Positions 1 to 33,126 of a DNA stretch of 64,000 nucleotides are shown piece by piece. The translations under genes were made by a program, and so were the position numbers. The notes beneath the pieces are model-generated. The model did no database searches and had not been told where the DNA came from. It saw nothing but the letters and a program-made list of their open reading frames with translations. The number at the start of each line of letters is the position of its first letter. The stretch's first letter is position 1. The stretch is from a virus. The DNA lies in IMG/VR virus record IMGVR_UViG_3300002042_000001, positions 1 to 64,000 of that record; one strand, 5' to 3'.

Positions 1-62
1 TCAGGTAAAGCGGGTGCTTTGGGTGCATCAGATCGAAGGTTCGAATCCTTCTCGCGAGACCA
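1..62 (+). tRNA. tRNA-Pro(UGG), 3' portion only; 5' end lies upstream of the window
   Basis: anticodon arm ggtgc/tttgggt/gcatc; T-arm gaagg-ttcgaat-ccttc; acceptor 3' strand tcgcgag + A + CCA ending at 62. Confidence 0.75.
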
Positions 63-496: not shown

Positions 497-671
497 GATT
501 ATGCGGTAATGGTTAAGTCCATTATTACCGCTCCAAATTGACGCAGTTAACTTATAGAGACTGCCGAACGGGTGACCTAATAATTAGGATATAGTACGCA
601 GAATTAAGCGTTGAAAAATACCGAACGAACAAAAGCTTCTATATGACGAGGGAAAGACCTCAACAGTTTTA

Positions 672-743
672 GTCGGTGTAGCTCAGTGGTAGAGCAGTGG
701 TCTCCAAAACCGCGTGTCGTGGGTTCGATTCCTACACCCTCGT
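672..743 (+). tRNA. tRNA-Trp(CCA)-like gene with aberrant acceptor stem
   Basis: canonical D-arm, anticodon arm gtggt/ctCCAaa/accgc and T-arm gtggg-ttcgatt-cctac; 3' acceptor strand accctcg (736-742) does not pair with adjacent 672-678; its complement lies at 647-652. Confidence 0.55.
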
Positions 744-757
744 CATAAAGGAAGAAT

Positions 758-916
758 ATGTTTATCAAGATTTCACATTCACGCAAGATACGCGATAGGT
801 TGATTACGTCCAGTTATAGCATTCACGAAGACAATCATTTGGAATTGGCACGCGTAATGAAAGAAACGCAGAAGCTTTCGAAGTTACATGATGACTTTCA
901 AATACGAATGAATTAG
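758..916 (+). CDS. small hypothetical protein (52 aa) between tRNAs
   Basis: AAGGAAG at 748-754 before ATG 758; stop TAG 914-916 shares its G with tRNA-Lys position 1. Confidence 0.3.
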   Translation: MFIKISHSRKIRDRLITSSYSIHEDNHLELARVMKETQKLSKLHDDFQIRMN

Positions 917-2564: not shown

Positions 2565-3441
2565 CAACCACCGAATCAGAACAAACGTTCCTAAGATTGC
2601 TCGCGAACGTTCAAGCGAACGGTAATGACCGTGGCGACCGCACTGGTACTGGTACGCGCAGCATCTTTGGTATGCAATCGCGTTACGACCTGTCACAAGG
2701 TTTCCCACTACTGACAAACAAACGCGTACCGTTCAAGTCGGTAATTAGTGAGCTACTTTGGTTTATCGAAGGTAGCGGTGACGAACGGCGTCTCGCTGAA
2801 ATATTATACGGCAAAGATCGTCAAGAATTGACCGACAAGACAACCATTTGGACCGCGAACGCACACGCCGATTATTGGGTGAACCGTGGTTACAAACAAC
2901 AAGAGGGCGACCTTGGTTATGTATATGGTGCGCAGTGGCGAAACCAAGTTAACGCTGAAACAGGCGAAAGTTACGACCAGCTACAAATATTGATCGAGGG
3001 TATTAAGCGCGACCCTGAAGGGCGCCGGCATATTCTCAGCGCTTGGAATGCACCTGAGATAGATATGATGGCGCTACCACCGTGTCACGTCATGTCGCAA
3101 TACTATGTGCGTGATGGCTATCTCGATTGCCAGATGTATCAGCGCTCGAACGACCTATTCTTAGGCTCACCGTTCAATCTCGCAAGCTACTCGGCGCTAA
3201 CTATGATGATCGCACAGGTATGCGACCTGAAGCCAGGAGAATTCATCTATACGATGGTGACGCACATATCTATCAGAATCACATGAAGCAGGTCAATGAG
3301 CTTTTGAAACGCGCACCGCGACCAGCACCGATCTTGAGGCTGAACAAGTCCGTAAAAGAAATTACAGACTTCACCATGGATGACTTCGATCTTATCGGTT
3401 ACGACCCACACCCTGCAATCAAAGCGGATATGGCAGTATGA
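2561..3441 (+). CDS. thyA: thymidylate synthase ThyA, reading frame broken by a 1-nt frameshift near 3253-3257
   Basis: ORF 2561-3286 carries DRTGTGT, ALPPCH, QRSND.FLG.PFN.ASY; ORF 3127-3441 (other frame) carries GDAHIYQNH...YDPHP; junction acgatGGtgac. Confidence 0.85.
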
Positions 3442-30883: not shown

Positions 30884-32125
30884 TCACCCCTTAATATTGA
30901 TTACCTGTCGCAGCGTGTGTAAAATTTCAACCAGATCGGGTTGCGCACCCATCACTGAGTCGATATCTTTGTACGCGCTCGGTGTTTCGTCGAGGGTACT
31001 TGCGTCTGCTCGCGTCTCGATACCTTCAAGCGCTGCCGCATGGTCTTCCACAGAAACTTTACGCTTCGCTTCAGACCGAGACATAACTCGACCAGCACCA
31101 TGACTACAACTATGGAAGCTGTCAGTATTTCCCAAACCCCGAACGATGAACGACTTTGCTCCCATACTACCAGGAATAATTCCCAAATCTCCTTCTCTTG
31201 CACGAACGGCTCCTTTCCTTGTCACCCATACATTCTCACCATAGTGGTGTTCGCGTGTCGCATAGTTGTGGTGACAGTTGATAGCGACCGCCTTGCTTGT
31301 AAACGGTTGTTTGATCGTGTCGCGCATAGCCATAAGTGTATTACGCATCATAATTTCACGGTTCAAAGCTGCGAAGTCTTGGCCCCAAGTCATCGCTTCG
31401 ACGTAATCATCAAACATTTCGGTATGCTCGACCAGATACGCCAAATCACGATCTGGCAGGTAATGGTCAAGATGCCAATGTTCAGCTTCGCGCTTTGCAG
31501 CGTTAATGAAATTCGTTCCGATACGGTTACCGACACCACGCGAACCAGAGTGAAGCATTACCCACACCCAACCTTCTTCGTCGAGACACACTTCAACGAA
31601 GTGGTTTCCACCACCAAGAGTGCCCAAGTGATGCGCGGTGTTTTGCAAACCGAGCTTCGGATATTTCTCAAGAATTTTGTCATATCGATCAGATAGCTTT
31701 TTGTTCCATTCTGAAGCGACGTGATTAGGTAGAGTACCCCAAGCACCACGGTCGATACCTTGTTTGCCGTTACCTGTGCGACCATGAGGAACCTTACGCT
31801 CAATCGCTGCGCGAATATGACCCAAACTATCGGGAAGATGCTCAGCGCGTAATGTCGTTTGTACAGCCATCATACCACAGCCGATATCAACACCGACCGC
31901 TGATGGAATAATTGCGCCTTTGGTTGCTACAACACTACCGACACAAGCCCCGTAGCCAAGGTGCACATCTGGCATGCCGGCAACATGTTTGTGAATGAAA
32001 GGTAGTGATGCAACATTTTGTAGCTGCTTAATCGCATTCTCGTCAAACTCCCGATGCGAATCCCAAAGCTTGAGGTTTTTCCCACCAAGCGGGTTCTGTC
32101 TATATGAATACATTTGCTCTGTCAT
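30884..32125 (-). CDS. rtcB: RtcB RNA ligase (3'-phosphate/5'-hydroxyl)
   Basis: DIGCGM, HSGSRG.GN, INCHHNY, GSMG, HGAGR motifs; TAATG-coupled ATG 32125. Confidence 0.9.
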   Translation of the reverse strand: MTEQMYSYRQNPLGGKNLKLWDSHREFDENAIKQLQNVASLPFIHKHVAGMPDVHLGYGACVGSVVATKGAIIPSAVGVDIGCGMMAVQTTLRAEHLPDSLGHIRAAIERKVPHGRTGNGKQGIDRGAWGTLPNHVASEWNKKLSDRYDKILEKYPKLGLQNTAHHLGTLGGGNHFVEVCLDEEGWVWVMLHSGSRGVGNRIGTNFINAAKREAEHWHLDHYLPDRDLAYLVEHTEMFDDYVEAMTWGQDFAALNREIMMRNTLMAMRDTIKQPFTSKAVAINCHHNYATREHHYGENVWVTRKGAVRAREGDLGIIPGSMGAKSFIVRGLGNTDSFHSCSHGAGRVMSRSEAKRKVSVEDHAAALEGIETRADASTLDETPSAYKDIDSVMGAQPDLVEILHTLRQVINIKG

Positions 32126-33126
32126 TAGCTTAGACCATCTTTGCTCATTCTGGTCAGATACCACTCTTTCGCTTTCTGCGAAATTGGCTTCGAGATTTCT
32201 TTCTTCTCGTAAGGAAGCGCGGCGATAGTGTCACCTTCTTCCTTCATAATATCTGCGAAGACCCACTTCAGGAAGTCACCTATGTAGCGCATTTCCAATT
32301 CACCACCTTTATCGAGAACAGCTTCTTGCAAACCTTGCTCTAAACGGCTCTCTGTGACGAATGTATCGACCACGTTGTTGATACCTTCAATATGCTCAAT
32401 ATCGACCTTAGCGAGCTTTGAGACGCGACTAGAGCTATGCTTCTCACCCTTTACCTTGAACCAGTAATCGCTCGACAACCAGTCGTCGTCAACGCACTTC
32501 CAAACAATACCTTCCCCGACACCATCGGCGATACCGAAGTGTTTGGCGACCGGACACTCAGCCTCGATCTTCAGCGTAAGGTCAGCCATCTTATTCTGCA
32601 CAAGGTGCGGATTATTGAAATCGATCTGCACCGCAAACATTGGGAAGTCAACGATCAGATAGATATTCGCCTCTTCACGAGCGGTAAGCGGCATGATCGG
32701 TTTCCACTCGTCGTTGATGCGCAAGGCGAAAACCATAAACATCTTCGCCAATTCGCTGATACCAACCGCCTTCTGGATGCCTTCACCACACCACTCGCCA
32801 TAGACCGTGATACGATCTTCATTGGTGCAATCGAATTGTTCACGAATTTCACCGATAAGCCACATAACCGACTTTTCATTTTCGGACATGTGCTTAGCGA
32901 ATCCGGCGTGATCGTCGCCTGGAACAAGTACACGGTTCTTCGACCGATATTCGATCTGGTCATCGCGAACCTGAATAGAAGCATTAGTACCGTGCAGCTT
33001 CACCGTACCGTGAAAGGTAAGCGTCGGTAGTGGTTTCTCATGGTACTTACAATGCTCGCGCACCTGTCGCACCGCGTTACGAAACTGACCGATAGAAGGC
33101 ATTTTATTTTTTACATTTGTCATCAC
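32125..33126 (-). CDS. ATP-dependent RNA ligase (Rnl2 / DRB0094-like nucleotidyltransferase)
   Basis: motif I KLHGTN, VYGEWCG, EGIVWK, FKVKGEKH. Confidence 0.75.
   Translation of the reverse strand: MMTNVKNKMPSIGQFRNAVRQVREHCKYHEKPLPTLTFHGTVKLHGTNASIQVRDDQIEYRSKNRVLVPGDDHAGFAKHMSENEKSVMWLIGEIREQFDCTNEDRITVYGEWCGEGIQKAVGISELAKMFMVFALRINDEWKPIMPLTAREEANIYLIVDFPMFAVQIDFNNPHLVQNKMADLTLKIEAECPVAKHFGIADGVGEGIVWKCVDDDWLSSDYWFKVKGEKHSSSRVSKLAKVDIEHIEGINNVVDTFVTESRLEQGLQEAVLDKGGELEMRYIGDFLKWVFADIMKEEGDTIAALPYEKKEISKPISQKAKEWYLTRMSKDGLS

Follow-up and report, generated by a model that had tools for sequence, protein, structure and literature searches.

The tRNA-Trp gene that starts at position 672 of the window (the first 64 kb, 64,000 nucleotides, of the 103,495-bp IMG/VR virus record IMGVR_UViG_3300002042_000001) belongs, with a probability that we put at roughly 90%, to a lineage of natively mismatched phage tRNA-Trp genes, and the "insertion" that it seems to carry does not exist. 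This lineage is widespread in uncultured phages. Its acceptor stem is natively GUCGGUG / CACC(C/U)UC, with G1-C72 paired, U2.U71 and C3.Y70 unpaired and four normal pairs, and the 25 nt that the first-pass annotation had read as an insertion between acceptor positions 7 and 8 are an ordinary leader followed by the gene's own 5′ strand (672–678). This copy differs from its relatives in three private features, all of them at the 3′ end, namely the loss of one C, the change of CCA to UCA, and a leader helix formed by 637–652 and 737–752.

The two ends of the record overlap by 79 bp, which indicates that the assembly is circular. The genome encodes the portal, large terminase, major head and tape-measure proteins of a tailed phage, together with RtcB, a second RNA ligase, a DNA ligase and thyA, and by all signs (lipobox proteins, and a tailed phage with a tape-measure protein) the host is bacterial. 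Analysis with ARAGORN and Rfam revealed an array of seven tRNA genes that spans the record junction:

tRNA-Met, starting at position 101939 of the record
tRNA-Pro, starting at position 103402 of the record (window 1–59)
tRNA-Asn, starting at position 420 of the window
tRNA-Trp, starting at position 672, the gene under study
tRNA-Lys, starting at position 916
tRNA-Tyr, starting at position 997, weak
tRNA-His, starting at position 2026

Several other features of the array and the genome were recorded. The end overlap runs through tRNA-Pro(TGG) (genome 103402–103478, window 1–59), so the partial tRNA at the start of the window is an artefact of the assembly junction and not a truncated gene. The tRNA-Tyr(GTA) gene at 997–1082 has an encoded CCA, a D stem of 3 bp, a T loop of 8 nt and a long variable arm; it was called by ARAGORN only with a lowered threshold, and its Rfam score of 28.7 bits is just below the cut-off of 29. 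Just 3′ of tRNA-Asn, at window 503–531, lies a strong imperfect hairpin (GCGGTAATGG ... CCATTATTACCGC) without a U run, which may be a processing or stability element inside the array. The RtcB gene (30884–32164, minus strand, 423.7 bits) adjoins the gene of an RNA ligase of family PF09414 (32125–33126, minus strand), and in a related contig (G004/L045, 1495–2936) a tRNA-Lys(UUU) gene stands immediately upstream of the RtcB homologue; this region of the window (30884–33126) looks like a tRNA-repair and replacement module.

ARAGORN called a tRNA-Trp(cca) at 672–742. The match to the Rfam family RF00005 was local, covering model positions 8–63 at 679–735 with 42.6 bits (gathering score, 29), and it contained the D, anticodon and T arms with the conserved U8, A14, G18G19 and T-loop UUCGA, which agrees with the earlier description of the D, anticodon (ctCCAaa), variable and T parts as canonical. 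The match stopped short of model positions 1–7 and 64–71, and the contiguous seven-pair acceptor with a 5-bp T stem that makes a full-length match was absent. With a canonical body and a match that is only local, the acceptor stem is the problem part of the gene. The features of the locus are as follows:

637–640, plus strand: lower leader strand TTCT, which pairs with 749–752 (AGGA) in the MFE and constrained folds
642–652, plus strand: leader strand TATGACGAGGG, the perfect complement of 737–747 and an exact 11-mer inverted repeat
643–672, plus strand: mini-ORF MTRERPQQF, nine codons and a stop, the last base of the stop being G1 of the tRNA
653–671, plus strand: A/U-rich spacer from the leader strand to the tRNA, with no copies and no BHB motif
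672–678, plus strand: native 5′ acceptor strand GTCGGTG (tRNA positions 1–7), conserved in the lineage and used by ARAGORN
679–735, plus strand: tRNA-Trp body with canonical arms (RF00005, 42.6 bits)
681–684/692–695, plus strand: D stem of the body
697–701/709–713, plus strand: anticodon stem of the body
704–706, plus strand: anticodon CCA, in the loop CTCCAAA
714–718, plus strand: variable loop of the body
719–723/731–735, plus strand: T stem, with the T loop TTCGATT
736–742, plus strand: 3′ acceptor strand A67–C72 (ACCCTC) with discriminator G73 (742); the C66 of the lineage is absent
737–752, plus strand: trailer strand, 737–747 pairing with 642–652 and 749–752 with 637–640
743–745, plus strand: TCA in place of CCA (alignment A2), T743 pairing with A646
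758–916, plus strand: 52-aa ORF directly 3′ of the tRNA-Trp locus

The seven bases preceding U8, GTCGGTG, had been described as unable to pair with the 3′ acceptor strand. This is correct for the register 736–742 but not for 735–741, where five of the seven positions pair (G1-C72, U.U, C.C, G-C, G-C, U-A, G-C). The latter is the register drawn by ARAGORN, which uses up one pair of the T stem, leaving it with 4 bp, and accepts the two mismatches.

Viral contigs were then scanned with a 5′-anchored query consisting of GTCGGTG and the D arm (TAGCTCAnTGGTAGAGC). The scan returned 20 other viral contigs, and the 5′ strand of the window was identical to all of them at 7/7 positions. At positions 66–72, nine of these contigs have CACCCTC, seven CACCTTC, two CACCGAT, one CACCGGC and one (L071) CATCGAC; the 3′ strand CACC[C/T]TC is accordingly present in 16/20 contigs, and the exact window type, CACCCTC-G, in nine. 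Nineteen tRNA-Trp genes continue after positions 66–72 with G73 and then CCA, one of them with CCT instead. A 3′-anchored scan (T loop through ACCCTCG, with one extra base allowed) gave four loci. Three of these are tRNA-Trp genes, each with the 5′ strand GTCGGTG; L051, the remaining one, is an odd non-Trp tRNA-like locus where ARAGORN found no gene. As the window strand matches that of the lineage at every position, U2.U71 and C3.Y70 are inherited and are not the tail of an insertion. The claim of a displaced 5′ acceptor strand thus fails on the identity of GTCGGTG in the 20 other contigs; the interval 654–678 exists, but it ends in the conserved 5′ acceptor strand of the lineage.

Alignment of the window gene with 17 relatives (alignment A2; 18 sequences, 16 of them distinct) showed that the D, anticodon and T stems are 96–100% paired with compensatory changes in five pairs, and that the pairs 2-71 and 3-70 are non-standard in 11/16 distinct sequences. 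The body of the window gene shares 46–52 of 57–58 aligned positions with lineage members, which themselves gave full-length Rfam matches with only pairs 2-71 and 3-70 flagged. Across the contigs L052–L054 and L056–L072, U2.U71 and C3.Y70 are unpaired in 16/20, and the other stems covary. The contigs L054 and L072 are near-identical and differ within the tRNA only at positions 70–71, which read CT and are unpaired in the former and GG and paired in the latter; the Rfam score of L054 (CUC, unpaired) was 63.6 bits, versus 72.3 bits for its paired near-twin L072 (GGC).

The surroundings of the relatives speak to the same point. In five of them (L056, L057, L058, L064 and L067) the gene begins 8–10 nt past the CCA of another tRNA, so a displaced strand has no room there. 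No significant helix was detected within 100 nt upstream of 16 lineage members (all p ≥ 0.05) or within 100 nt downstream of the 15 with enough 3′ sequence, and no cis partner for the unpaired positions 70–71 was found on either side of the lineage members. No member, then, has an upstream complement beyond chance with which a displaced strand could be equated. The first-pass annotation had named relatives with a normal contiguous acceptor stem as a finding that would count against it, and in spirit this is what the relatives display, although their strand is contiguous and natively mismatched. Cultured phage records contained no match of >90% identity to the mismatch-type queries L052 and L058, and a literature search turned up no account of phage tRNAs with insertions, or with conserved mismatches, in the acceptor stem.

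Some observations on individual members of the lineage deserve mention in their own right. The L059 gene (8408–8502, minus strand) carries, between U33 and C34 of its anticodon loop, a 19-nt hairpin-forming insert (CTTGC-GTCA-GCAAG followed by CTGGA), which is shorter than any group I intron could be. At 2904–3013 of L071, a 561-kb viral contig, a gene start of GTCGGTG and the D arm is combined with a matching 3′ strand, CATCGAC, and a long insert that replaces the anticodon arm region; this locus may be an interrupted tRNA or a tRNA-like RNA. In L052, L060, L066 and L068, the tRNA-Trp gene is preceded by a conserved box (GGTTACTnATAG) that resembles T7-type promoters, with a covarying hairpin after the box. 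The sequence GTTAACTTATAGAG at window 546–559, about 115 nt upstream of the window tRNA-Trp, resembles this box.

A direct search for orthologues of the locus yielded none from a related phage. Megablast of 1–2400 against phage records returned nothing, and the neighbouring ORFs 1138–1554 and 758–916 had no relatives in viral contigs, the latter having no Pfam homologue either. ORF 1547–2020 had 21 relatives, none of them syntenic with tRNA-Trp; a metagenome scan gave a single, non-syntenic contig; and no tRNA-Trp was present in the capsid-protein relatives (60–78% identity; five records searched in full).

An interim model, a 24-nt insertion with GG microhomology and compensatory changes, was dropped once the GTCGGTG lineage had been found. 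It arose because GAGGG (648–652) and GGTG (675–678) together form the exact complement of CACCCTC, so that the interval was first read as a 24-nt insertion; removal of 24 or 25 nt in silico gives ARAGORN a clean tRNA. A scan for GAGGGTG with the D arm in 185,579 bacterial and archaeal species returned only three tRNAs, all non-Trp, and a viral scan for the uninterrupted gene, with a gap of 0–30 nt allowed, returned only one normal tRNA.

The same interval might be taken for an intervening sequence of 24–25 nt that is excised like an archaeal-type or other protein-spliced intron, the exons being resealed by the phage RtcB. Removal in silico does leave an acceptor stem of 8 bp without a mismatch, or one of seven positions with a single A/A mismatch, and RtcB and another RNA ligase are among the phage's proteins. 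The presence of RtcB, as would be expected for an archaeal-type intron, is nevertheless weak evidence, since many phages carry this enzyme for tRNA repair. A script scan of 630–760 found no BHB motif bracketing 651–677, and the splicing endonuclease EndA (PF01974) was not found in the phage, the sole match being one of 11.8 bits antisense to a cytidylate kinase gene. The interval is far below group I intron length and ends in the lineage's own acceptor strand, and an uninterrupted GAGGGTG tRNA-Trp is absent from the viral and bacterial collections searched. We therefore regard excision as hardly credible, and the suggestion of an insertion that must be removed falls with the BHB motif and the endonuclease. 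The spacer 653–671 is an ordinary 5′ leader, not an intron; it has no second copy within the window, and its matches in phage records are at chance level only. Archaeal tRNA introns and split tRNAs resemble the locus in the apparent interruption of the 5′ strand, the complementary flanks and the presence of RtcB, but the window lacks BHB and EndA, its "intron" contains the lineage acceptor strand, and the host is by all signs bacterial.

The complementarity that had suggested a displaced strand is real. The perfect pairing of 644–652 with 737–745 was confirmed and proved to be part of a longer helix of 11 perfect bp, a 1x1 A/A mismatch and 4 further pairs, in which 15 of 16 positions are paired. 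When the 80-nt leader was shuffled 200,000 times, a complement of at least 9 bp arose in 329 shuffles and one of at least 11 bp in 8. The longest leader complements of the phage's other six tRNAs were 4–7 bp, and those of 26 control tRNAs (fetched loci) 4–6 bp, apart from one 9-mer that consists of A and T only and lies outside the acceptor strand. The leader-trailer helix is locally far beyond chance; since a few such helices are expected by chance when very many tRNAs are inspected, the local p-value makes the case look stronger than it is. No second copy of the 11-mer occurs in the genome. Rfam listed no other RNA family at the locus at E up to 10, and no promoter or terminator signal there exceeded shuffles.

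Folding of the 636–752 transcript gave −16.5 kcal/mol for the native cloverleaf, −31.3 kcal/mol for a cloverleaf closed by the leader helix, −38.5 kcal/mol for the latter with optional extra pairs and −38.8 kcal/mol for the unconstrained MFE. The prediction thus favours the leader helix over the native acceptor stem by about 15 kcal/mol, in a calculation that leaves out proteins and co-transcriptional folding. The lower part of the helix overlaps AAGGAAG (748–754), the likely Shine-Dalgarno sequence of ORF 758–916. We propose that in the array transcript the leader would hold the 3′ strand, its helix outcompeting the weak native acceptor stem, and that the RNA would fold as a closed, tRNA-shaped stem-loop which also masks part of the ribosome-binding site that belongs to the small ORF downstream.

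The 3′ end of the gene carries the changes private to this phage. In alignment A2 the lineage consensus reads ...CCTAC-CACCCTC-G-CCA, versus ...CCTAC-ACCCTC-G-TCA in the window. The window gene has the ACCCTC-G of the lineage, whereas C66, at the junction of T stem and acceptor, is missing as a one-column gap relative to the 17 relatives (possibly a sequencing error), and its loss is the reason why Rfam aligns the window copy only locally. The end G-TCA instead of CCA, as already stated in the first-pass annotation, contrasts with CCA in 16 of the 17 aligned relatives (CCT in one). Through C74T, T743 pairs with A646 and the leader helix becomes continuous. Both private substitutions lie in the helix region, and with C74T making the helix continuous they look selected rather than neutral.

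The thyA gene, 2.5 kb away, is split at window 3240–3262 by the loss of one G from a short run ('atggtgac' for the expected atgggtgac), with both halves matching the thymidylate synthase family; the split is either a sequencing error or a pseudogene, and this one-base loss could be a sign that the assembly contains homopolymer errors. Over 2.7 kb, the comparison with a contig of 97.6% identity showed no gaps, which indicates that indel errors are not rampant. The missing C could nonetheless be a sequencing error, and in that case the native tRNA would be typical of the lineage and possibly functional once nucleases remove the leader.

On that assumption the gene would encode an ordinary working tRNA of the lineage, with the helix being due to chance or acting as a transient clamp of the precursor. 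Host nucleases would remove the clamp, first RNase E in the U-rich spacer and then 3′-5′ exonucleases; RNase P would cleave at 671/672, and the CCA-adding enzyme would repair the 3′ end. Many tRNA genes do not encode their CCA. Restoring the C would leave C74T as the only departure from the lineage consensus, lineage members are full tRNAs by Rfam score, thyA close by has likewise lost 1 nt from a short homopolymer, and the body is intact. On the other hand, the 2.7-kb comparison is free of indels, the helix is very unlikely by local chance and far more stable than the native stem, and no clamp of this kind occurs in any other lineage member. We consider this reading possible but on the whole unlikely.

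The shortened junction, the lack of CCA and a clamp far stronger than the acceptor stem suggest instead that this copy probably does not mature normally. To us the balance is about even as to whether it has ceased to mature as a standard chargeable tRNA, being either recently crippled and in decay or kept as a structural or processing element in the shape of a tRNA. The body shows no disruptive change, which would be unlike a long-dead gene and to that extent counts against the reading we favour, as does the selected look of the two private substitutions. Of the options raised at the outset, two are still candidates: a leader-trailer processing helix, the helix being real and private to this phage, and a degenerate pseudo-tRNA, with one C lost and TCA in place of CCA.

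The leader strand might also serve as the acceptor strand itself, 647–653 providing the 5′ side of a mature tRNA that tolerates a 25-nt loop between positions 7 and 8, or of a two-piece tRNA. The T stem of 5 bp, A653/A736 and 647–652/737–742 would make exactly 12 stacked layers, the canonical length; the GAG of the leader pairs with C70-U71-C72, including the positions left unpaired by the native strand; and C74T lengthens the helix. However, the gene has kept its conserved native 5′ strand at the usual position, and no lineage member uses an upstream strand. The discriminator would become U743 in place of the invariant G73, followed by CA-U and not CCA, and the helix stays paired past +1, where base pairing hinders RNase P. 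We know of no natural tRNA with an additional arm at that place, between positions 7 and 8, and we consider such an acceptor strand distinctly doubtful. We are just as sceptical of the idea that the lineage mismatches are a selected device, by which the tRNA escapes or exploits a host factor that reads the acceptor stem, with the leader helix as a substitute 5′ strand or a maturation switch; were it true, the outcome would be a tRNA with an extra 25-nt loop, or gated maturation.

Gating by translation can be envisaged as well, with ribosomes on the mini-ORF 643–672 melting the leader strand and so freeing the 3′ strand for the native stem. The mini-ORF lies precisely over the leader strand, and its last base is G1 of the tRNA, but chance quite often leaves a short open frame in a leader of 30 nt. 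As it has neither a Shine-Dalgarno sequence ahead of its ATG nor a Trp codon (only Met and Pro match array tRNAs), we give a translation-coupled switch little weight and hold it to be very unlikely. Zero terminator-like sites were found in 1–2400, and of the hallmarks of a leader-peptide attenuator, namely a translated leader ORF with codons matched to the controlled tRNA and a terminator/antiterminator, none was seen. Judged by its sequence, the mini-ORF is probably not translated.

At the DNA level, the inverted repeat of 11 bp flanks the tRNA body, as might be expected if an attachment site or a mobile-element junction had left a scar in the tRNA gene, with the repeat acting as recombination or terminal repeats. 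Against this, the 103-kb genome encodes no tyrosine integrase (PF00589), the 11-mer is single in the genome, and the gene sits within the seven-tRNA array. The ORFs inside and next to this array gave no Pfam match except weak, sub-threshold Ig-like ones in the 472-aa ORF, and no nuclease domain was seen among them. We find such an origin highly improbable.

Comparison with known systems places the gene among phage tRNA-Trp genes with the same parts and a different acceptor stem. Of the annotated genes, the tRNA-Trp gene in Ruegeria phage DSS3_MAL1 comes closest, with 92% identity over 675–739. The tRNA-Trp(CCA) genes of cultured phages (Caulobacter CcrMagneto, phiCbK-like phages and DSS3_MAL1) share the isoacceptor, D arm, anticodon loop, T loop and G73 with the window gene, and that of CcrMagneto also begins with the same GUCGGU. 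Their stems are fully paired (GUCGGUC/GACCGGC in the phiCbK group; AGGGGUG/CACCCCU, then G-CCA, in DSS3_MAL1), whereas that of the window gene is mismatched, and we know of no leader-trailer clamp in any of them.

The RNase III stems of bacterial rRNA operons and phage early transcripts likewise form a long helix across the 5′ and 3′ sides of a stable-RNA gene, and the predicted 11 + 4 bp of the window helix, with the 5-bp T stem stacked on it, would amount to about two turns. We are not aware of RNase III-type leader-trailer stems around single tRNAs. Unlike in those stems, the acceptor strand of the tRNA itself makes up one side of the window helix, and staggered cleavage within the helix would therefore destroy the tRNA. 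In mitochondrial tRNA 5′ editing (Acanthamoeba, Dictyostelium, chytrids), Thg1-like 3′-5′ polymerases repair mismatches in the first three acceptor pairs. The lineage mismatches likewise concern 5′-strand positions 2 and 3, where repair templated by the 3′ strand would give GAG or GAA; in contrast to the edited tRNAs, G1-C72 is already paired, and no Thg1-like gene was found in the phage.

For annotation, these results mean that a phage tRNA which looks broken or interrupted can be true to a lineage whose acceptor-stem mismatches are built in, and that such genes are not to be called intron-bearing from one sequence. The mismatch lineage and its paired/unpaired dimorphism bear on how phage tRNAs mature and how they coexist with host defences that target tRNAs. 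The clamp of 11–15 bp in this one phage should, as far as the folding predictions go, block normal maturation, and it bears on the same questions of maturation and defence.
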